Source: Candidatus Poribacteria bacterium (GTDB lineage Bacteria > Poribacteria > WGA-4E > WGA-3G). Taken from it: DNA of 64,000 nt. The position numbers were made by a program, and so were the translations under genes. The notes under the pieces are model-generated. The model had not been told where the DNA came from. It saw only the letters and a list, made by a program, of their open reading frames with translations, and did no database searches. This document shows positions 39,680 through 53,326 of this stretch, one piece after another. The stretch spans positions 64,001-128,000 of the forward strand of contig CBDANF010000002.1 in assembly GCA_965197475.1 (NCBI GenBank), given 5' to 3'. Position 1 is the stretch's first letter; the number at the start of each line of letters is the position of its first letter.

Positions 39680-40453
39680 TCAATTTGGTTTTTGAGTTGG
39701 AAAAGACCTGCCTGCAAGCTTCAATGCGGTCTCAAGTTGTATCGCAGTATCAAAGTCCGCAATCGCCGCATCGTATTCACCAAGTCCTCCCTTGGCAATC
39801 CCTCTATTGTGATACGCTTCGGCAAAATCAGGTTTGATTTGTATTACAGTATTAAAATCCGATATAGCAGCATCGTATTGGCCGAGTGATCCTTTTGCTA
39901 CACCCCGATTTAAGTAGGCTATTGCTTTATCAGGTTTGATTTGTATTGCAGTATTGTAGTCTGCAATCGCCGCATCGTATTGACCAAGTTTGCTTTTTGC
40001 CACCCCTCGATTGAAGTATGCGGTTGCTTTATCCGGTTTAATTTGTATTGCGGTATCAAAGTCTGCAATCGCCGCATCGTATTTACCGAGTTGTCCTTTT
40101 GACAAACCCCGACCATAGTAGGCAGCTGCGTAATCAGGCTTAAGTCGTATGGCAATATCAAAGTCCTCTATTGCCGCATCGTATTCACCAAGTTCGCTTT
40201 TTGCTAACCCCCGATTGAGGTAGAACCCTTCCTTAAACCTGATGAGGCGTATAGCGGTATCAAAATCTGCAATCGCCGCATCGTATTCACCGAGTTCTAC
40301 CTTTGCATTTCCTCGATTGTTGTAGGCAAGCGCAAAATTAGGATCAAGGCATATGGCAATATCAAAGTCCTCTATCGCCGCATCGTATTCACCGAGTTCT
40401 ACCTTTTCCACACCTCGTTTGTTGTAGGCATTTGCGTCATCAGGAAGAGACAT
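39680..40453 (-). CDS. TPR-repeat protein with near-identical repeats, C-terminus probably deleted
   Basis: Seven LG.YDAAI.DF..AI units; abrupt join to ALKLA. Confidence 0.85.
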   Translation of the reverse strand: MSLPDDANAYNKRGVEKVELGEYDAAIEDFDIAICLDPNFALAYNNRGNAKVELGEYDAAIADFDTAIRLIRFKEGFYLNRGLAKSELGEYDAAIEDFDIAIRLKPDYAAAYYGRGLSKGQLGKYDAAIADFDTAIQIKPDKATAYFNRGVAKSKLGQYDAAIADYNTAIQIKPDKAIAYLNRGVAKGSLGQYDAAISDFNTVIQIKPDFAEAYHNRGIAKGGLGEYDAAIADFDTAIQLETALKLAGRSFPTQKPN

Positions 40454-43412: not shown

Positions 43413-43753
43413 GTAATTTAATATCTCCCATATAAGTTCGTATTTAAAGGTGCTACAGACATGACATCTTGAATAAGTCTCTATTATTAAATAGGTTTTC
43501 GTTGATTTTGTCAAGTAAATTATAATTTTCTTCGTTTGCATTATTTCTTGATTTCTTGTCCGATGTGTGATATATTTTAAGTTATCACTATGTTAAATTA
43601 ACTCTGTGTTAGGAAAAATAGTTATACAACCATTGCACTCCGCTGGAACTATTGTAGGAGGATTGATTCTTAAACCTGAAGATGCTGAAGTACTGCGAAA
43701 TCCTAAACTTTAGCGCGGATGCGATATTAAGTGAACGTAGTAAAACACATTTC

Positions 43754-44104
43754 ATGAAGATACCAAATGCTGAACGTGCTATTGTTGACATTCGCAAGCT
43801 GCGAGATTATTGCCTCAATCCGCAGCATAATAAAGGAAAACATAAAGCCCGCTTATTTACCTCCATACTCGGTATGAATACTAATGATGCAGAAGACTTA
43901 CGTAACGTCTTATTAGAAGTTGTCAAGAAACAGGACGCACAATTAGCTGAAAAGAACGCGTATGGGCAGCGTTATACGCTTGATTTTACGTTAAATTGGA
44001 ACGACAAGCAAGCGACAATTCGTAGTGCTTGGATTATTGAAACTGATTCTGACATCCCAAAATTGACAACTGTGTTTCCATTGATACATAAAGGTGAACT
44101 ATGA
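43754..44104 (+). CDS. DUF6883-like putative toxin
   Basis: MKIPNAERAIVDIRKLRDYCLNPQHNKGKHKARLF...YGQRY...IRSAWII....PKLTT (recalled family signature); ATGA overlap with the next gene. Confidence 0.8.
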   Translation: MKIPNAERAIVDIRKLRDYCLNPQHNKGKHKARLFTSILGMNTNDAEDLRNVLLEVVKKQDAQLAEKNAYGQRYTLDFTLNWNDKQATIRSAWIIETDSDIPKLTTVFPLIHKGEL

Positions 44105-47100
44105 AAAATAAATTTTCCAATGACACCTCAAATATAGGAAATTCGACTGAACACAGCCAGGAACCTGCAGGTAATGGCAAAATCAAACTTCTGGATGTCG
44201 TTGCGCTTGCACAGGATATTCCTGAGCATAATCTCAAACGTGGAGAAACCGGTACTGTCGTTGAAATCCTTTCGAACGGCGAAGCGTTTGAGGTGGAATT
44301 TAGTGATGAGAATGGACAGATGTATAAGTGTACAAGTTTCCTTGCATCTCAACTCACAGTCCTCCACGATGAACCAATAAATACAAATCCGAACCGTCAA
44401 GCAAATGACGCCATACAAGGTTACTACTATCAACTGTGCCATACTGTAGATGCTTGGTTAGACCTTGCTGATAATGATATTCTCTATGTTGAAGTTGCGG
44501 AAGATTTTGATATAGAGTCAGATGGAACGTTTACAGCCACGCAAGTCAAACACACACAACGCAATATATCACTTAGATCTGAGCAAGTGATTAACGCAAT
44601 CAACAACTTTTGGAAATTGCGAAATGACAATTCTAATCGGTGTGTGAAATTCCGTCTCCTCACAAAATCTAAGATCGCAAAAGAACAAGAGGACCCCTTT
44701 GGAACGGATAAACCAGGCCTTGAGTTATGGAGTCATTGTTCCGGTGATGAAGTAGTAATCAAAAAAATATCCAACTTTTTGCAGAATGATGGGAAAATAT
44801 CAGCGGAAGTAAGTGAATTTCTCGAACAAACAGAACCGCAAAATATTTATGAACAACTCATTGAACCCATTACTTGGGAGACAGGTAGCAAACCTATAAG
44901 TTATGTTGAACGATCCATAAATAGTAAATTAATTCTTCATGGTAGTCGACAACCTATCCCAGTACCACCTTCTGATGCCAAGAAAGTAGTTGGCTGTCTT
45001 CTCAAAGAAACCTTAACGGTTGCAACACAAAAAGAAAACCGAGAACTTACCAAAGCACGCTTCCTTGAAATTTTCGAGGAGCAAACCACACAAAGGATTC
45101 CGACACAGCATTTGCAACAGCTGCAAAGTCAAGTGACAATGATGCACAGTGTTGGAATGCCATCTTTTAAGGGTTCCTCCGATATTACTATCCAATTTCA
45201 ATCTCTAATACAAACTGAGATACCTCAAACATACTTGGATGTCCTTGTTCCAAGAACAGATCTACTCACAAGTATACAGACAAAACTCCAATCAGAAGGT
45301 ATATCTATAATCCATGGAGGAGCGGGAAAAGGAAAAACAACCCTCGCAAAATTGACTGCAAACGCTATAAGCGGAAAATGGTTTTGGCAGAGTTTCACAA
45401 AAATGGATCCGTTATCTAAAGAATTTTCACTTCAGGTTGCCCAACAGTTGAAACAGCTTGCTATTGCGATACATAATGAATCTTCTCAAGTCAATGTTGT
45501 CCTTGATGACTTGAGTTTACAATCTAAACATCTACATGGATATAAAGAAGAATTAGGTGTTGTGGTCTATAATGTCCTTAATCGTGGTGCAAAATTGTTG
45601 ATTACAAGCCAACATAAAACACCTCTTAATTTCATTACCAGCCTTGGTTTACCATCATCTATCGTCATAGATGTTCCTAACTTTACCATGCCCGAAATTG
45701 AGCAATTTGCTGAACAAATGGGGTGTCCGACTAATGACTTAAAAACTTGTGTAATCTCTATTCAAACACATACACTTGGACATCCAAAACTCGTACACGC
45801 TCGATTAGCTCAATTGCGGGAGAAAAACTGGAAAGAAAAACACACAATAGAAAGTCTCATGCAAACGCCCCAAGAAGTGAAAGACGAACGCGAAGCAGCA
45901 CGACAGTTAGTTTCCAAATTACCCGAAGATCAACAGAAATTTCTCTATAGACTTAGCCTAATGCATACTGTATTTAGGAGAGATTATGCTCTCAACATTG
46001 GCGAAATCCCAGAACCCGTTCAGAATCCTGGAATTGTACTTGATCAATTGGACGGTCCATGGATAGATCGTGTTAATGAAACTTACTTCACTATTTCACC
46101 TTTACTAATTGACGCAGCTAAACAGGTTTGGTCTAAGAACGTGACAAACAAACTTCACACACAGATTGCAAACGCAATCCTTGAAGCAGATCATCTAACC
46201 ACGATAGAAGCACGAACTGTATTTCATCATAGTATACAAGGACAAAATAAAAAAGGATTAATTTCTGTCATTTATTCTTTGATAACTGCCCCAGAGGATG
46301 ATTGGCAAAATATTTGTCAAGAATTCTCATGGATCAGATATCTTAAAACCAATCCTCCCGATGAATTTTTCCCTGGGGATTTCTTTGAAAATCACATGTT
46401 TCGATCATTGCAGTATCGATTTTCGGTAGAGGTGGAACCAGAATTTGCCCCGAAAATACTTGAAATCTGGGATAACGAAACCAAAAAATACAAAACACAT
46501 CAATCATATATGATGGCACGTCTAATGCTCACAACACAAGCATTGATATATAATCAAGCGCAATTTTCAGCCAAGAAATTGATGAGTTATCTAAAAGAAA
46601 TCTATGATATAAAAAACATGGGCAAAAAGGTTTGGAAGTCATACTTTAATTCCATGGAAGAATTAAAAGAAATAAACATTGATGAATCAAACTTTTTCAG
46701 TTTCCTATTTAGTTGTATCTATATGCGTCCAGAAATCAACGCTGTTTTCCTCAATGAACTTATTGATACACTGGATAAACTTGATCCAAGAATTAGAACG
46801 TTATTATTGGTTGACTTTGAGAATGATACCATTCAATCACAACTTTTGAATAATGGAGTTTGGTTAACAGAGGAAAAACTTGAAAATCCTAATTGGACAA
46901 GATGTCTTGAAGCTTTTGATAAAGTAATTGAAAAAACTATTGCATGGGGTTATCCATATATCGCTGCTGCATCAGCAAGAATTAAAGCCATCACCCATGA
47001 CGAAAAATTGAGCGACCCAGATACCGCTCATAAAGTTCTTCAAGATATTATATCAAAACTTGGTACTTTACCAACGATAGAAGAAGCACAAGCAGTCGTA

Positions 47101-48651
47101 TACTTTAACCAGAAACGCTACAAAGACGCACTCAATATTTACGAACGTATTCTCCCAAAATGGAATCCACCATCAGACCAAGTAAACATTGGACCTTTAG
47201 AGGAATATCGTAGAGCCGCTATCTGTGCAGCCAACTTGGACGATTGGAAGAAAACAGCCTGCTTTTTTGAAGAGGGAGCTAATAAAACTCGAAAGATTGA
47301 AAATACTGAAAGATATATCGGTTTATATGCAGATGCAGGATTTGCCCACTTTAAAGCAGGCAATATGTTGAACTGCATAAAATTCCTACATCTGGCGTTG
47401 CAAAATTTTGAGACACTACCTCAAGACAATACAGATGTTAAGTATTTCACTTTAAAGAAACGATTAGAATACATTATAAAATGGATATGGGTGATATGGT
47501 GCGGACTTGAAAATAACTCTTCAGAACTTACTGAACCCTCTGCAGGTTTCTGTAGTGATCCGGAGACTAAAGAAAAAGTTTTAGACTTACCTGATTCTCC
47601 GATAGGATACTCTTGGCTCTTTTTAGCGCAAATTGAGTACAGATTTGGACATGAGACGACAGTTTTCCAACATGCCCTGCAAACCACAGATAGAAATACA
47701 TATCCAGAATTAAGTTTCTTTCTTTCTCTACTCAAAACACAATATGACTTTAGAAACAAAACCCTCAATGAACTACCAACACGTATACAGCAATTGGCAA
47801 ATGCTTGCAACTCAATACAAAAGCACCTCCAAAGTGGAAAAGGGATCAGAGAAGAGGGAATCGGCTTTATACCTATAGAAAACGTGCCCAATTTCACATC
47901 TGTTGAGAACACCACTGTTATGTTAGTAGCAGCCCTTGTTATTCAATTATCAGCAGGCGCAGATACACATGCAATTTTGTCTATATGGCGTGCTAATTCT
48001 TCAGAGCTATTTATAAAAGAAAATATGATAAATGTTCTTAATCTGATTGACAGAATGTTATCTGCAGATCAAAATTATGCCCTAAAAGTGATGAAAACAC
48101 AAGATGTTAAACCTGAAGAGAGGTTAACAGCAGCATTAAAGATTATTCATAATATCGAAACAAGTCCAAAAGATCTTTTTCATGCACATATACTCATTTC
48201 AACTTATCTCGTTGATAGTCTAATATGGCTAGATCCCTTCTTGACAGGTTTAGCAGGATTACTTTCTGCACAGTGGCTTGAGAAAATAAAATTTCGAGCG
48301 GCATTGAAAATGCCTATGGTTACAGTGCCCGAAATTGAACAAGCCTGTAACAGTAGTGAGACTGGGAAGAAAAAAATCGGTCAGATTCTACTTGCAGCAC
48401 ATCCCGCTGTTTCAGTTAGAGTGGCACCTGATACATTGCAGCAGTTTCGCACTTGGACAGAATCAAAGCAGAAACAGGAACATGCCATAGGAAAAAATCC
48501 AACAGCACAACGCCTGATCAAAGCGATGGAAAAGCCACCGCATCTCACTGATGAAGATATTGAAGCACTGAATCAGTCAATAAAAGAGGGGGAAATACCT
48601 ATAAAGTTTGATTCGCCCTTTGAACCGGATGAACGTGAAAACAATGAATAA
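44101..48651 (+). CDS. DUF4926 + Cap4/DUF4297-like nuclease + P-loop (STAND-like) NTPase + helical/TPR-like region + antitoxin-like tail (1516 aa)
   Basis: aa~28-90 KLLDVVAL..D..GETGTVVE..FEVEF; aa~100-150 AIQGYYYQ..EVAEDFD..QVK; Walker A GGAGKGKT (aa406); Walker B VVLDD (aa466); helical C-terminal half; tail LIKAMEKPPHLTDEDIEALNQSIKEG. Confidence 0.75.
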   Translation: MKNKFSNDTSNIGNSTEHSQEPAGNGKIKLLDVVALAQDIPEHNLKRGETGTVVEILSNGEAFEVEFSDENGQMYKCTSFLASQLTVLHDEPINTNPNRQANDAIQGYYYQLCHTVDAWLDLADNDILYVEVAEDFDIESDGTFTATQVKHTQRNISLRSEQVINAINNFWKLRNDNSNRCVKFRLLTKSKIAKEQEDPFGTDKPGLELWSHCSGDEVVIKKISNFLQNDGKISAEVSEFLEQTEPQNIYEQLIEPITWETGSKPISYVERSINSKLILHGSRQPIPVPPSDAKKVVGCLLKETLTVATQKENRELTKARFLEIFEEQTTQRIPTQHLQQLQSQVTMMHSVGMPSFKGSSDITIQFQSLIQTEIPQTYLDVLVPRTDLLTSIQTKLQSEGISIIHGGAGKGKTTLAKLTANAISGKWFWQSFTKMDPLSKEFSLQVAQQLKQLAIAIHNESSQVNVVLDDLSLQSKHLHGYKEELGVVVYNVLNRGAKLLITSQHKTPLNFITSLGLPSSIVIDVPNFTMPEIEQFAEQMGCPTNDLKTCVISIQTHTLGHPKLVHARLAQLREKNWKEKHTIESLMQTPQEVKDEREAARQLVSKLPEDQQKFLYRLSLMHTVFRRDYALNIGEIPEPVQNPGIVLDQLDGPWIDRVNETYFTISPLLIDAAKQVWSKNVTNKLHTQIANAILEADHLTTIEARTVFHHSIQGQNKKGLISVIYSLITAPEDDWQNICQEFSWIRYLKTNPPDEFFPGDFFENHMFRSLQYRFSVEVEPEFAPKILEIWDNETKKYKTHQSYMMARLMLTTQALIYNQAQFSAKKLMSYLKEIYDIKNMGKKVWKSYFNSMEELKEINIDESNFFSFLFSCIYMRPEINAVFLNELIDTLDKLDPRIRTLLLVDFENDTIQSQLLNNGVWLTEEKLENPNWTRCLEAFDKVIEKTIAWGYPYIAAASARIKAITHDEKLSDPDTAHKVLQDIISKLGTLPTIEEAQAVVYFNQKRYKDALNIYERILPKWNPPSDQVNIGPLEEYRRAAICAANLDDWKKTACFFEEGANKTRKIENTERYIGLYADAGFAHFKAGNMLNCIKFLHLALQNFETLPQDNTDVKYFTLKKRLEYIIKWIWVIWCGLENNSSELTEPSAGFCSDPETKEKVLDLPDSPIGYSWLFLAQIEYRFGHETTVFQHALQTTDRNTYPELSFFLSLLKTQYDFRNKTLNELPTRIQQLANACNSIQKHLQSGKGIREEGIGFIPIENVPNFTSVENTTVMLVAALVIQLSAGADTHAILSIWRANSSELFIKENMINVLNLIDRMLSADQNYALKVMKTQDVKPEERLTAALKIIHNIETSPKDLFHAHILISTYLVDSLIWLDPFLTGLAGLLSAQWLEKIKFRAALKMPMVTVPEIEQACNSSETGKKKIGQILLAAHPAVSVRVAPDTLQQFRTWTESKQKQEHAIGKNPTAQRLIKAMEKPPHLTDEDIEALNQSIKEGEIPIKFDSPFEPDERENNE

Positions 48652-49060
48652 ATATCTCTTGGATACATCAACATGTAGTTTGTTGATGGAGGATAATCCC
48701 AGAGTGAAAGGGCGTTTAGATTCTTTGACTGAGTCGGACTACCCTTTTACTTGTCCAATCGTTAAGGGCGAAATTCTGTTCGGAATTGGTCGGCTCCCTG
48801 CCGGAAAAAGAAGACAAGATCTCGAACAAAGGGCAAATGAACTATTTGCTGAAGTTCCGTGTGACCCAATCCCTGAGAATGTTAGTGATGTTTATGCACA
48901 GATAAAAGTTGCTGCTCAACAGCAGGGAACGTCTTTAGGTGAATGCGACCTTTGGATTGCTGCTACGGCTTTATCTCTTGATGCAATCCTGGTTGCTTCC
49001 GATTCTGATTATGAAAGAATAGTTGGATTAGGGCTCCGTCTGGAAGATTGGAAAAATTAA
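48644..49060 (+). CDS. vapC: VapC/PIN-domain ribonuclease toxin
   Basis: YLLDTS, VKGEILFG, DLWIAATAL, LVASDSDY acidic PIN motifs; 8-bp overlap with the upstream gene. Confidence 0.9.
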   Translation: MNKYLLDTSTCSLLMEDNPRVKGRLDSLTESDYPFTCPIVKGEILFGIGRLPAGKRRQDLEQRANELFAEVPCDPIPENVSDVYAQIKVAAQQQGTSLGECDLWIAATALSLDAILVASDSDYERIVGLGLRLEDWKN

Positions 49061-49111
49061 CGAAAGAGATATTTCACGTCAATAACACAGATAAACCGAA
49101 AGGAATTGCCC

Positions 49112-50734
49112 ATGCCAACACTTGAATTCAACGGAAAACACCACATTTACACACACCACCTCACCGTTCCCTACCGACCACTTGAAAAAGACGAAAGTCG
49201 CTCTTGCAACCCAACCAGTGAAAACGATAACCTAATTATTCACGGCGACAACCTACACGCCTTAAAAGCATTACTTCCCCGCTATACGAACCGAATCAAG
49301 TGTATCTACATTGACCCACCCTACAACACCGGCAACGAAGGATGGGTTTACAACGACAACGTAAACAGTCCCTTGATGCAGGAATGGTTAAAAGAAAATG
49401 GACCAGTTGATGAAGAAGACCTTGAACGGCATGAAAAGTGGCTCTGTATGATGTGGCCCCGGTTGCATCTGCTCAAAGAACTTCTTGCCAAAGATGGCGT
49501 AATTTTTATCTCTATTGATGATAACGAACAACACCATTTACGATTGCTGATGGACGAGATATTTGGTCCTGATAATTTCGTAACGCAGTTCATATGGAAT
49601 AAGAAAAATGTTGTTCAGAACGACGCAAAATTCGCATCAGTCAATCATGAATATATCATTTGTTACCGTAAGAGTGATGACTTTCAACGGTTTAATCTTC
49701 TTCCGAGAAGCGAGAAAGCTAACCAGAGATACAAGAATCCTGATAACGATCCTCGTGGTCTTTGGCAGAGCGTAGCACTCCAAGCTAAAAGTGGTACACA
49801 AGCAAATGTATATACTGTGACATTTCCAAACGGTGTCACTTGGACACCTCCGAGTGGAACATTCCCTAAATTTTCAAAAGAAAATCTTTTATCACTTTAC
49901 AAAGAAGGGAGTTTATATTTCGGAGAAAAAGGTGAAAACGTCCCGCGTCTAAAAAAATATCTTTCTGATGTCATGCCGGGTATGGTATCAAACTCTATAT
50001 TAACAACAGATGAAGTAGGGTCCACACAGGCAGCTACCGAAACAGTAAAGAACATCATGGGAGACAACGTATTCAGTTCTCCGAAAGCCGTTGGACTTAT
50101 CCAACGTTTCCTGTTAATTTCTACCGGTCCCGACGACATCATCCTTGACTCCTTTGCAGGGAGCGGCACAACAGCCCATGCTGTCCTCGCCTTGAACAAA
50201 GAGGATGGTGGTAACCGTAAATTCATCCTCATTGAGTGTGAAGATTATGCCGACACCGTCACTGCTGAACGTGTCCGCCGCGTTATTAAGGGTGTTCCCG
50301 ATGCAAGTGACGATGGACTGCGCGAAGGGTTGGGAGGATCTTTTACCTATTGCACCTTGGGCGAACCGATTGAAGTTGAGGCGATGCTTACCGGAAAGAA
50401 GTTACCAACATACATGGCACTTGCTACTAATCTCTTGTTTACTTCTGCAGGTATTTCTATTAAGGGTGATACGTTGGAGCAGAAAAATGATGATGGACTT
50501 TTTTACAGTGATGACAAAAACGATTACTATCTGATTTACAAACAAGACTTTGAGTATTTACGCAGCAACGAAGCAATCCTAAATCTGGAGCATGCCAAAC
50601 GTATCCAAGATTCCAGTACCGAAAACGGCAAAAAAGCGATTGTCTACGCGGCAGGAAATTATATCGGACAGCGCGAACTCACAAAGATGGGAATTGCATT
50701 TTGCCAACTTCCATATTGCATACATGAAAGATAA
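49112..50734 (+). CDS. mod: Type III R-M adenine methyltransferase (Mod)
   Basis: IIHGDNLHALK, IYIDPPYNTG, IFISIDDNE, ILDSFAGSGTTAHAV. Confidence 0.92.
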   Translation: MPTLEFNGKHHIYTHHLTVPYRPLEKDESRSCNPTSENDNLIIHGDNLHALKALLPRYTNRIKCIYIDPPYNTGNEGWVYNDNVNSPLMQEWLKENGPVDEEDLERHEKWLCMMWPRLHLLKELLAKDGVIFISIDDNEQHHLRLLMDEIFGPDNFVTQFIWNKKNVVQNDAKFASVNHEYIICYRKSDDFQRFNLLPRSEKANQRYKNPDNDPRGLWQSVALQAKSGTQANVYTVTFPNGVTWTPPSGTFPKFSKENLLSLYKEGSLYFGEKGENVPRLKKYLSDVMPGMVSNSILTTDEVGSTQAATETVKNIMGDNVFSSPKAVGLIQRFLLISTGPDDIILDSFAGSGTTAHAVLALNKEDGGNRKFILIECEDYADTVTAERVRRVIKGVPDASDDGLREGLGGSFTYCTLGEPIEVEAMLTGKKLPTYMALATNLLFTSAGISIKGDTLEQKNDDGLFYSDDKNDYYLIYKQDFEYLRSNEAILNLEHAKRIQDSSTENGKKAIVYAAGNYIGQRELTKMGIAFCQLPYCIHER

Positions 50735-50743
50735 GGGGGAAGG

Positions 50744-53326
50744 ATGCTGGAATTAAAAACATATCAGCGCGATACACTCGACGCATTTAGCAATTGGTTA
50801 GAGGTGCTTAAAGAGGAGCGGCAAACTTCAAAAACTGCAATTGAACATTTAAAAGAAGCGGGGAGTAGTATTAGTGACGATGTTCTCAATGAAATAGGTA
50901 ATTATCCCAAAACTGCATGGAGGAAATTGAAAGAAAACGATGGCGTTGCAGCAACTGCAGGTGAATACGTTGATCGTAAGGATGGCGCAAATCGACCAAT
51001 TCCGCACATCTGTTTTAAAGTGCCGACAGGTGGCGGTAAAACACTGCTTGCAGCATCTGCTTTAGAACAACTGCATCGGCAGCGGGGACTGACATTGTGG
51101 GTTGTGCCAACAAAGGCTATCTTCGATCAAACGAAGGCTGCTTTGTGGAACAAAGAACACCCCTATCGTAAAGTTTTGGAACGTGCAAGTGCTGGGCGCG
51201 TCAAGATGCTGGAAAGAGAACATCCATTTAACAGAGATGACATTACTAATTACCTTTGTGTCATGCTACTCATGTTGCCAGCAGCGAATAAATCGCCTGA
51301 TAAAAAACTCAAAGACAAAGCGTACTACCGTATGTATAGAAATTCAGGGCGTTATTCAAGTTTTTTCCCCGACCATGACGATAACGAGGGCAATACCCTT
51401 ATGCAAGAGAAATACCCCGATCTTGATTATAACACTGAAGGAAACTTGCCTATGCAAAGTCTCTTTAACGTAATCAAGATACTTCATCCCGTAGTTGTTC
51501 TTGACGAGGCACATAAGGCTTATGGCACTAAAAATGGGCAGGAATTTGCAAGTTCTATTAACCGCCTTGACCCGCAAATGGTTATTGAACTCTCTGCTAC
51601 ACCGAACAGCGGCATTAGCAATTTGCTTGTTGATATTGCAGGCCCCGATCTGAAAAAAGAGGAAATGATTAAGTCACCAGTACAGGTATCATCATTTTCA
51701 GGTATGACGTGGCAAAATACGTTGAGCGAGGCTTCCAAGGAACTTGAAAGGCTTGATGAGGAGGCAAGTTTGCTTGAAAGCAGTACGGATCGGTATATCC
51801 GCCCCATTGCAGTTGTGCGCGTTGAGGTGACGGGTGCGAATCTGCAAGATGGCACGCGAATCCATGCCGAGCATGTTCGAGATTACCTTACACAAAATTT
51901 AAATGTGCAACCAGAGGCAGTACGTGTTAAATCCGCTTATAATGATCAACTCCGTGGGGAAAACCTACTATCCAAGGAATCACAGGTAAAATGGATAATT
52001 ACAAAATCTGCTTTGATGGAGGGATGGGACTGTTCGTTTGCATATCTGTTAGTAATGCTGGACAATACACGGTCGCAAAATGCAATTACGCAACTCATAG
52101 GAAGAGTAATGCGGCAACCACATGCACAACTTACGGGTAGAGAATCACTTGATCAATGTTACGTTTTTTGCAATGAGACCGATGTTGATGATGCCGTCAA
52201 GCAGGTTAAGAGGGGATTAGAATCACAAGGACTCACTGGCATGGAAGATAAAATATTTGCTAAGGGAAATACCCAGGATCAAGCAGATTTCAAAATGGAA
52301 AAGATACGCCGCCGCGAGCAATTTCGTGGGCAAGAGATTTATTTGCCAGTGGTACGTCATAAGGACGGTAACAAATGGATTCAACTCAATTATCAGGCAC
52401 ATATTTTGCCACATATAGATTGGCTTAGTATTAAACCACCCGATCTGAATGCGTCAGCACCCGACGGACCAAGATTGCGAACAGCAACAGTTCCTATTGA
52501 CGATGTACCGCCTATTTTCCATGACGATCAAGAGCCTTATGTTGAAAAAGAGGTTAGTGTAGCCGATTTTGCGCTCAGTTTGATTGACATTGTGTCAAAT
52601 CCATGGCAAGCTGCTCGCATTGCAGAAGAATTGGTAGAAGGTCTAAAAACAAGTGGAGATACTGATGAAAAAATCTACGATAGACGTTCTTATCTCATTC
52701 CTATGTTGCATGAACACGTTGCAAATGAATTAGAAAATCAAGCTGAACAAATTTTTCGAAAAAAGTTGGATACTGCCGAAATTCAATTTGACTTAGAGGT
52801 AGGTGATCCGAATTATAAACTGCGACAAAATTACAAAATTGAGGTACACGCCAATCAGAATTTACTTACAAAATATGGTAAACCTGTTCAACTCAGTCTG
52901 TTTGAACCAATGTATGAGTATCCTTCAGATAACGAATTAGAAAAGAAATTTGCACATTTCCTTGATGGTGAGAAAGCACTGCAATGGTGGCATCGGGTCA
53001 TAGCGCGTCAACAGGGAGAATATTACGTGCAAGGTTGGAAAGATAGGCGCATTTACCCCGACTTCGTTGCAATGGCGAAGGAAATTGAAGGCATGACGCG
53101 TGTTCTGATTTTTGAGACAAAAGGAGAACATTTGGAAGGTAACCGTGACACAGAGTACAAGGAGAAAGTATTGACAATACTTGAAGAAGCGTTTAATAAC
53201 TCTGGCACTATAAAAATGTGTGAAAAAACGACTCATACAGGTATCTTTAATTTGGTTTTCAACGAGCAGCAGTTTGCAGAAATATCTGCCCAGTTGAATG
53301 AAGGCGCATATTCTACGGAAAATTAG
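50744..53326 (+). CDS. res: Type III restriction enzyme Res subunit
   Basis: KVPTGGGKT, LDEAH, ELSATP, EGWD, QLIGRVMRQP, C-terminal YPDF...FETKG nuclease. Confidence 0.9.
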   Translation: MLELKTYQRDTLDAFSNWLEVLKEERQTSKTAIEHLKEAGSSISDDVLNEIGNYPKTAWRKLKENDGVAATAGEYVDRKDGANRPIPHICFKVPTGGGKTLLAASALEQLHRQRGLTLWVVPTKAIFDQTKAALWNKEHPYRKVLERASAGRVKMLEREHPFNRDDITNYLCVMLLMLPAANKSPDKKLKDKAYYRMYRNSGRYSSFFPDHDDNEGNTLMQEKYPDLDYNTEGNLPMQSLFNVIKILHPVVVLDEAHKAYGTKNGQEFASSINRLDPQMVIELSATPNSGISNLLVDIAGPDLKKEEMIKSPVQVSSFSGMTWQNTLSEASKELERLDEEASLLESSTDRYIRPIAVVRVEVTGANLQDGTRIHAEHVRDYLTQNLNVQPEAVRVKSAYNDQLRGENLLSKESQVKWIITKSALMEGWDCSFAYLLVMLDNTRSQNAITQLIGRVMRQPHAQLTGRESLDQCYVFCNETDVDDAVKQVKRGLESQGLTGMEDKIFAKGNTQDQADFKMEKIRRREQFRGQEIYLPVVRHKDGNKWIQLNYQAHILPHIDWLSIKPPDLNASAPDGPRLRTATVPIDDVPPIFHDDQEPYVEKEVSVADFALSLIDIVSNPWQAARIAEELVEGLKTSGDTDEKIYDRRSYLIPMLHEHVANELENQAEQIFRKKLDTAEIQFDLEVGDPNYKLRQNYKIEVHANQNLLTKYGKPVQLSLFEPMYEYPSDNELEKKFAHFLDGEKALQWWHRVIARQQGEYYVQGWKDRRIYPDFVAMAKEIEGMTRVLIFETKGEHLEGNRDTEYKEKVLTILEEAFNNSGTIKMCEKTTHTGIFNLVFNEQQFAEISAQLNEGAYSTEN

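Follow-up and report, generated by a model that had tools for sequence, protein, structure and literature searches.

Predicted antitoxin modules fused to both ends of an Avs-like receptor in a defence island of Candidatus Poribacteria

Bacterial Avs receptors, toxin-antitoxin (TA) pairs of the VapBC type and the DUF6883/DUF4926 pair are the closest described relatives of a three-gene locus at positions 43,754-49,060 of a 64,000-nt stretch of DNA from Candidatus Poribacteria, a sponge symbiont (assembly GCA_965197475.1, contig CBDANF010000002.1, positions 64,001-128,000; this whole stretch is called the window below). With Avs receptors (SeAvs3, SeAvs7) the central gene of the locus shares a Cap4-type nuclease, a STAND nucleoside triphosphatase (NTPase) with Walker A and B motifs, a long helical C-terminal region and a place in a defence island beside a Type III restriction-modification system. 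With VapBC pairs (FitAB / tRNA-fMet-specific VapC group) the locus shares a PIN toxin with acidic residues, an antidote encoded directly upstream with overlapping stop and start codons, an antidote C-terminal segment predicted to lie over the active site, and stand-alone relatives with typical antitoxin heads. In passages of a preprint, DUF6883 is assigned to the BECR RNase toxin family 'BECR-Tox3', and the conserved presence of DUF4926 downstream of it is taken to suggest a toxin with its immunity protein (bioRxiv 10.64898/2026.08.28.747851); both families are found in the window in identical order and in overlapping genes. Avs-like receptors, VapBC, DUF6883/DUF4926, TA guards of defence genes and TA units captured by sensor NTPases are known already. 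How costly, easily lost defence genes are retained is an open question, to which CreTA provides one answer for CRISPR-Cas.

The 1516-aa open reading frame (ORF) in the centre of the locus is flanked by a DUF6883 gene and a VapC/PIN gene, and carries a DUF4926 module near its N-terminus and a predicted VapB-type toxin-binding tail at its C-terminus (Table 1). The stop codon of the DUF6883 gene overlaps the receptor ATG (ATGA at 44101-44104), the 3' end of the receptor gene overlaps the start of the PIN gene by 8 bp (48644-48651), and the spacing of receptor and PIN gene leaves no room for a separate vapB gene. An original prediction, made from the letters of the window without database searches, had described three overlapping genes and the lack of a vapB gene, and both descriptions were confirmed. 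The fusions are real and conserved; the mechanism offered for them is a proposal. We propose, with a probability of about one half, that two captured type II TA cassettes make the receptor polypeptide the antidote carrier, forming an addiction or reading-frame-integrity lock.

At the N-terminus, the complete DUF4926-type module that had been predicted was recovered over the full length of the Pfam profile. It is preceded by a 29-aa leader that is common to free-standing DUF4926 genes. In the same genome (L002), a free-standing DUF6883 gene is followed by a free-standing 101-aa DUF4926 gene with a leader similar to receptor residues 1-29, in line with the earlier statement that DUF4926 proteins are usually small stand-alone partners encoded after DUF6883. 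Because leader and domain both match this free-standing gene, the receptor N-terminus is an entire DUF4926 protein joined in frame, and the module is predicted to be the immunity or antitoxin part for DUF6883. The same genome also carries a lone 71-aa DUF4926 gene without DUF6883 (L003:1164-1674, contig C3, ~1.175 Mb), with a 108-aa ORF, DUF433-like by eye, 3' of it on the same strand.

When searched alone against Pfam and NCBIfam at E values up to 10, the C-terminal tail (about aa 1455-1516) gave chance-level matches only (Reo_P9, DOMON). It is matched at 60-89% identity by 91 small proteins (40-109 aa), which include short proteins made up of leader and tail, others in which a DUF2281-like or AF2212-like head precedes the tail, and apparent deletion products of receptor genes. 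A profile built from 23 tails was searched against 1.84 billion representatives and matched 127 proteins at E<=0.001. The distant members are 80-130 aa long and carry the motif at the C-terminus; the Pfam heads detected in 48 picked proteins of the 127 were AF2212-like (7), RHH (2), DUF2281 (2), DUF433 (1), HicB-like (1) and ParD (1), and heads of these kinds are typical of type II antitoxins. Long, repeat-rich matches (P0242, P0258, P0275, P0304, P0317) were set aside, as their matches in several stretches look like repeat noise. The motif is also fused to a 247-aa tetratricopeptide repeat (TPR) protein (P0246), a HicB-like protein (P0229) and a DUF433 protein (P0219, Pfam), and the tail therefore behaves as a mobile module. 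Within the phylum, the tail query matched 121 of 176 genomes, and a PIN gene of the window's subfamily was located directly 3', with a 4-bp overlap, at 9 of 20 fetched distant tail genes.

The PIN gene is matched by NCBIfam VapC models under their cut-offs, its product by PDB profiles of VapC and FitB, and the acidic residues D/E7, E43, D102 and D120 are conserved in 15 sequences. Modelling of PIN and tail as a complex gave an ipSAE score of 0.85 in 3/3 runs, compared with 0.00 for the best of three controls (contact agreement at least 92%, partner pLDDT 72); 58 of 80 complexes with solved structures pass the mark applied to this score, as do 2 of 110 mismatched pairs. The modelled interface takes in PIN residues adjoining D7, E43 and D102, and the tail is predicted to cover the PIN active site. 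Sequence and model together assign the tail to a modular family of VapB-type antitoxins, of which it is probably the C-terminal part that binds the toxin. The original prediction had taken it for part of a VapC-associated antitoxin, and this is supported by its small relatives with antitoxin heads upstream of the same PIN subfamily as well as by the complex model.

Between the two modules, receptor aa 107-227 match Pfam Cap4_nuclease (PF14130) with 32.8 bits (cut-off 26.2), and the nuclease region (aa 99-331) was matched in PADLOC by LmuA (E 9.6e-16) and DUF4297 (E 5.4e-10); the DUF4297 chains 8xav and 9c1m are the sole solved relatives of this part found by sequence in the PDB. The nuclease residues G107/Y108/Y110/Q111, E131, E134-D135 and Q148-V149-K150, the Walker A residues G411-K412-T413 and the Walker B residues D469-D470 are invariant in a 12-sequence alignment, which covers all nuclease and Walker motifs named in advance. 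Matches of nSTAND3 and NACHT to aa 386-427 remained under the Pfam cut-offs, as did AAA_16 and weak TPR matches near aa 996-1018 in the helical region. An AlphaFold2 model of aa 95-760 (18-row alignment, mean pLDDT 69) was compared with the PDB using Foldseek and retrieved Apaf-1, CED-4, MalT, Avs3 (8dgc) and plant NLR resistosomes (E 1e-9 to 1e-7), fold matches that back the effector-STAND-helical layout assumed from the start. None of the Avs profiles in PADLOC-DB v2.0.0 matched the receptor at E<=0.1, the newer Avs families (PMC13581612) being outside that library. On this basis the core resembles an Avs/NLR-type receptor with a Cap4 nuclease and falls outside every Avs family profile compared.

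A word-indexed search returned at least 404 receptor homologues at E<=0.001, almost all of them from Candidatus Poribacteria. The best 120 of these (59-98% identical) were sorted by reading their ends and by a motif tally: DUF4926, core and tail are combined as in the window in 38; core and tail occur without DUF4926 in 58, 14 of which keep a DUF4926-type leader joined straight to the nuclease; DUF4926 and core occur without the tail in 21; two start inside DUF4926 and lack the tail; and one is truncated. The long ORF could in principle have been produced by an assembly or frameshift error joining at least three separate genes, since the window stems from a metagenome-assembled genome with a contamination of 6.97%; no other support for such an error was found. 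Both junctions of the window are present without gaps in contigs of two DNA runs from different studies (44101 is spanned by X1 record 1 and X4 record 23, the core-to-tail junction by X4 record 29). With the same two-ended architecture in 38 of the best 120 homologues, in-frame fusions at 20/20 PIN-bearing loci and purifying selection on both terminal modules (see below), an artefact is highly improbable and was rejected. Parts of the receptor, the junction of tail and PIN, and a mini-form joint are also represented in contigs from RNA libraries (X15, X16), which is no proof of transcription.

The co-occurrence of toxins and antidotes was followed in 36 loci from species-representative genomes, selected by two core motifs and labelled as Poribacteria (32), Latescibacterota (2), a gammaproteobacterial bin (1, on a 3.6-kb contig) and an uncultured bacterium (1). 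The PIN gene is present in 20 of these core-selected loci, and each of the 20 has the tail immediately 5' of it, in the reading frame of the receptor piece that comes before; a PIN gene lacking the tail was found in 0/36. The tail occurs without PIN in seven loci, where it is frameshifted or truncated (3), still fused (2) or a separate ORF before a CAP12/Pycsar-type TIR gene (2). Seven loci have neither tail nor PIN: Mod follows the receptor directly in five (L014, L022, L026, L027, L030), a TIR-type gene follows it at L037 and other genes at L028. Two loci end at a contig edge. Fused DUF4926 is present in 14 of the 36 loci, with the upstream DUF6883 gene whole in five, reduced to a fragment in two and absent in seven, and DUF6883 was found in 0/22 core-selected loci without fused DUF4926. 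A second sample consisted of the 30 best PIN matches in the phylum, window included; here a full tail is located upstream in 29, as part of a receptor (26), of a mini gene (2, see below) or of a protein with another N-terminal domain (1; L137, L098 locus). The toxin is almost never found without its antidote and the antidote often outlives the toxin, which is the pattern expected of TA pairs.

In some loci the position of the PIN gene is taken by a gene located between receptor and Type III Mod (L023:8245-9186, L031:8254-9168, L037:8135-9106, L109:~2039-2896). Its product, of 304-323 aa, consists of an N-terminal part of ~160 aa followed by a TIR domain of the CAP12/Pycsar type (PF10137, E about 1e-40). 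A separate tail ORF of 64-66 aa runs into the start of this gene (ATGA overlap) at L023 and L031. The TIR protein was considered as a second partner of the tail and set aside, as it follows a tail-less receptor at L037 and lies ~330 nt past a mini gene at L109; the gene is provisionally treated as an alternative occupant of the PIN site.

Broken or 5'-truncated receptors that keep the tail end and PIN are present in five PIN-bearing loci (L015, L033, L036, L038, L040). Many genomes of the phylum contain mini genes (~143-168 aa) that lack the entire 1370-aa core and run in frame from DUF4926 straight into the tail. Among 20 loci fetched for this size class, 19 proved to be DUF4926-tail genes of this kind, with at least four junction types. 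The toxins have been lost from most of them; PIN is intact beside one of the 19 and a pseudogene or remnant beside three, DUF6883 remnants accompany four, and two more PIN-bearing mini genes lie outside this set. Mini-form and PIN-less joints were also found in contigs of the runs aligned to the window. Since the mini linkers retain residues that precede the nuclease and at least four junctions exist, the mini genes are explained by deletion of the core, and an ancestral mini gene with later insertion of the core was rejected. They may act as trans-acting double antidotes. Related PINs (57-81% identity) are encoded elsewhere in three of five PIN-less mini-gene genomes, and whole DUF6883 genes in two of the five.

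The ratio of nonsynonymous to synonymous substitution rates (dN/dS) was calculated for 30 intact genes by pairwise Nei-Gojobori comparison. No other part of the receptor is as constrained as its two terminal modules (Table 1). The fusion is neither unique to one genome nor free of purifying selection, two weaknesses that the original prediction had allowed for. In 11 PIN-less mini genes, dN/dS is 0.11 for the tail, 0.18 for DUF4926 and 0.99 for the linker. The relatedness of the genomes inflates both the mini-gene and the selection counts.

In the proposed lock, a DUF6883 RNase/DUF4926 cassette and a VapC PIN RNase/VapB-type antitoxin cassette would have become attached to an Avs-like receptor gene, one at either end, with the toxin-neutralising part of each antitoxin alone being kept and translated within the receptor polypeptide. 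The tail would cover the PIN active site and DUF4926 would hold DUF6883, the receptor being the sole nearby source of antidote for both RNases. As the only local antidote, the receptor could then not be lost or truncated without freeing a toxin: its deletion would remove the antidote and leave the toxin gene, and any nonsense or frameshift mutation along the 4.5 kb of the ORF would abolish the C-terminal tail and free PIN. The cassettes would in this way act as a lock on the defence gene plus its island. The proposal takes up the observed domain identities, conserved in-frame fusions, one-way dependence of toxin on antidote and purifying selection; from these we infer neutralisation, killing on loss and a benefit to defence. 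The gain may fall to the defence function or to the cassettes alone.

Several observations weigh against this lock. The three-gene layout does exist elsewhere (L009), but both toxins together with both fusions are confined to the window and this one of the 36 loci. PIN is lacking in 16 of the 36, the toxins often being gone while the antidote modules stay, and the lock is leaky, given that toxins have been lost in many loci and the core can be deleted in frame. One of the 30 PIN-selected loci (L129) has an intact PIN with no more than a ~20-aa tail remnant upstream. Constraint on the tail is the same with an intact neighbouring PIN (dN/dS 0.133, 30 sequences) and without one (0.134, 34 sequences); hence either the tail serves for more than the PIN next to it, in trans or in another way, or the toxin losses are recent. 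The genomes are related, so that the counts overstate the number of separate events, and the complex score may reflect likeness to known pairs, VapBC complexes having already been solved. The predicted doubling of the sensor as an antitoxin is partly supported: the layout, the whole DUF4926, the antitoxin tail and the selection speak for it, and the rarity of the full two-toxin layout and the frequent loss of toxins qualify it. At L129 itself, a start fragment of DUF6883 (~32 aa) was noted 42 nt upstream of the intact PIN ORF (L129:1300-1917), and elsewhere in that genome a tail match falls in a 145-aa open frame (G104:C1:1291349-1291492), known from the match alone.

The two RNases might instead serve as extra effectors that are docked on the receptor ends, are freed by phage sensing (ATP-driven oligomerisation) or by degradation or inhibition of the receptor, and would add RNA cleavage to the Cap4 DNase in abortive infection. 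This tentative alternative would fit the physical placement of the antidote parts within the sensor and the retention of the PIN catalytic residues. Passages of PMC13581612 describe the resting Cap4 of SeAvs7 as packed on the sensor C-lobe and moving upon activation, and both ends of a receptor of this kind would therefore change their environment. The same switch logic is proposed, in passages of a preprint, for ParA/sensor proteins encoded with TA pairs (10.64898/2026.10.19.760177), the recruitment of TA toxins as co-effectors has a precedent in DUF397 (PMC7159879), and a different effector, the TIR protein, is found at the PIN position in some loci. Set against this, the receptor has its own nuclease effector, the absence of PIN from 16/36 and of whole DUF6883 from 29/36 loci makes the toxins dispensable for the receptor family, tail and PIN persist beside broken receptors, and the sensor-less mini genes are common and under selection. 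A related version, a dead-man switch in which a self-guarded hub keeps two TA-derived RNases parked on its termini until oligomerisation or phage attack on the receptor looses them, is rather unlikely; in that case the widespread mini proteins of DUF4926 and tail would serve as the corresponding decoys or as anti-addiction factors.

It is also conceivable, and on balance unlikely, that the fusions are selfish by-products: TA cassettes would have landed in a recombination-prone island, their antitoxins would have been fused by chance and kept by the toxins without any gain for defence, or else the antidote modules would be kept as trans protection against related toxins elsewhere or incoming (anti-addiction). 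Variation of cassette presence among close relatives, the occurrence of PIN-less and core-less forms in the same samples, and purifying selection on antidote modules that lack neighbouring toxins, with a neutral linker, are consistent with this, as are the related toxins encoded elsewhere in some PIN-less mini-gene genomes (PINs in 3/5, whole DUF6883 in 2/5) and the L129 genome, where PIN stands beside a tail remnant and the tail match lies elsewhere. Such an origin is harder to reconcile with the fusion of the tail wherever receptor and PIN adjoin (unfused intermediates with a separate vapB in 0/20 core-selected and 0/26 PIN-selected cases), with the persistence of the fused state across receptors that are only 56-73% identical and across three families of the phylum, and with two different cassettes on one gene, an unlikely coincidence. 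A by-product differs from the lock mainly in its beneficiary, which sequence data cannot settle.

Table 1. Coordinates of the features of the locus and its island in the window; mini genes are given by locus
Feature	Coordinates	Strand	Match, residues or alternative start	dN/dS
DUF6883 gene (predicted BECR-fold RNase toxin, 'BECR-Tox3')	43754..44104	+	Pfam PF21814, E 4.9e-29, profile 1-109/110; alternative ATG further 5' at 43682 (ORF 43682/43754-44104)	
Receptor ORF, 1516 aa (leader, DUF4926, Cap4/DUF4297 nuclease, STAND NTPase, helical region, linker, tail)	44101..48651	+		
Leader, 29 aa				0.41
DUF4926 module, receptor aa 30-87	44188..44361	+	Pfam PF16277, E 5.1e-20, profile 1-57/57	0.11
Cap4/DUF4297-type PD-(D/E)xK nuclease domain, receptor aa ~99-331	44395..45093	+		0.27
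STAND NTPase module, receptor aa ~380-700	45238..46200	+	Walker A aa 406-413 (45316-45339); Walker B D469-D470	0.24
Long helical region, receptor aa ~760-1440, probably TPR-like, presumed sensor	46378..48420	+		0.26
Variable K/Q/E-rich linker, receptor aa 1441-1464	48421..48492	+		0.42
VapB-type toxin-binding tail (predicted), receptor aa 1465-1516, plus stop codon	48493..48651	+		0.13
VapC/PIN toxin gene	48644..49060	+	Pfam PIN, E 1.4e-13; TTG further 5' at 48608 (ORF scan)	
Type III restriction-modification Mod	49106-50734	+	PADLOC MTase_III, E 5e-167	
Type III restriction-modification Res	50744-53326	+	PADLOC REase_III, E 2e-163	
Mini genes (DUF4926-tail)	L090-L109 (e.g. L090:1233-1727), L044, L052, L059, L067			

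The DUF6883, receptor, PIN, Mod and Res genes form a small defence island between housekeeping genes (RidA-like and FabV on the left, PGM-like on the right), and this synteny is repeated in other loci. Promoter-like sites were not in excess between 43400 and 49300 (16, compared with 17.8 +/- 4.3 in shuffles), a result that is uninformative on operon structure, and a scan of the same interval revealed no convincing terminator between the three genes. On the 5' side of the island, the window encodes a 257-aa protein of regular TPR-like repeats of ~34 aa with recurring 'GEYDAAIADFDTAI' units (39680-40453, minus strand). At related loci, a SEC-C-motif protein, a SMODS/CD-NTase-like nucleotidyltransferase (PF18144, E 2e-29) and a patatin-like ORF are encoded downstream of a decayed tail (L012:8552-11244, minus strand) and look like a CBASS-like cassette in the same island; IS3-type transposase ORFs are located just past a frameshifted tail (L016:8693-9815); and the receptor gene is interrupted by insertions of ~0.9-1.2 kb, two in L040 and one in L028. 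Extra tail copies or a DUF4926-tail remnant were found a few kb from a complete receptor-tail-PIN unit (L018:4136-4285, L020:4001-4431, L038:9393-9527), which suggests tandem duplication or recombination between copies.

If the lock operates as proposed, every nonsense or frameshift mutation in the receptor would kill the cell as long as it carries the PIN gene, since the antidote is placed at the extreme end of a 1516-aa ORF. An NLR-like receptor seems to have evolved a protein-level answer to the loss of defence genes. The phylum offers a natural series of loci with both cassettes, one or none, with the core deleted or with the toxins decayed, in which gain and decay of addiction can be compared. 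Should the toxins be freed on activation, the locus would represent a covalent version of the sensor-plus-captured-TA logic and a bacterial parallel to guarded immune receptors; were the dead-man switch true, attacking the sensor itself would trigger cell suicide.

No published description of antitoxin parts fused to both ends of a STAND receptor was found (supplements, which possibly list such architectures, apart), and the text of PMC13581612 that was searched (supplements apart) contains neither 'antitoxin' nor 'PIN'. The original claim that no described system with this architecture is known agrees with this as far as the fusions go; the idea of a sensor NTPase combined with a TA pair is present, with separate genes, in passages of a 2026 preprint. 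Lamassu differs in that the LmuA match is limited to the nuclease region (aa 99-331) and no LmuB/SMC-like partner is found among the island genes. Compared with Avs receptors, the window adds DUF4926 before the nuclease, an antitoxin tail after the sensor and toxin genes on both sides. Compared with VapBC, a 1460-aa receptor stands where the antitoxin would have its DNA-binding head, and none of the antitoxin families of Pfam or NCBIfam matches the tail; because the receptor takes the place of that head, autoregulation, lability and stoichiometry must differ from VapBC. In the DUF6883/DUF4926 pair, DUF4926 is a protein of its own, whereas in the window it is the N-terminus of a large receptor; the passages of the preprint on this pair (supplements apart) mention MuF fusions of the toxin and none of DUF4926. 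Pez-Ham likewise joins a type II TA pair (PezAT) genetically to a nuclease/NTPase defence system, Hachiman, but does so with separate genes and with a reported role in repressing Hachiman expression (PMC13064477). CreTA resembles the proposed lock in being an addiction module: its antidote needs the defence machinery, and the cell therefore cannot lose the defence genes (PMC9458426); it is RNA-based and acts by Cascade-mediated repression, whereas the window has protein antitoxin parts fused to the defence protein. In ParA-based ternary systems, as described in passages of bioRxiv 10.64898/2026.10.19.760177, a type II TA pair, in some cases with a BECR RNase toxin, likewise accompanies an NTPase with a TPR or other sensor, and the sensor NTPase is proposed to reorganise the contact between toxin and antitoxin. 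Those systems consist of three separate genes with a ParA-like NTPase and the TA pair as sole effector, whereas in the window the antitoxin parts are covalently attached to a STAND receptor with its own nuclease, and two cassettes are present.

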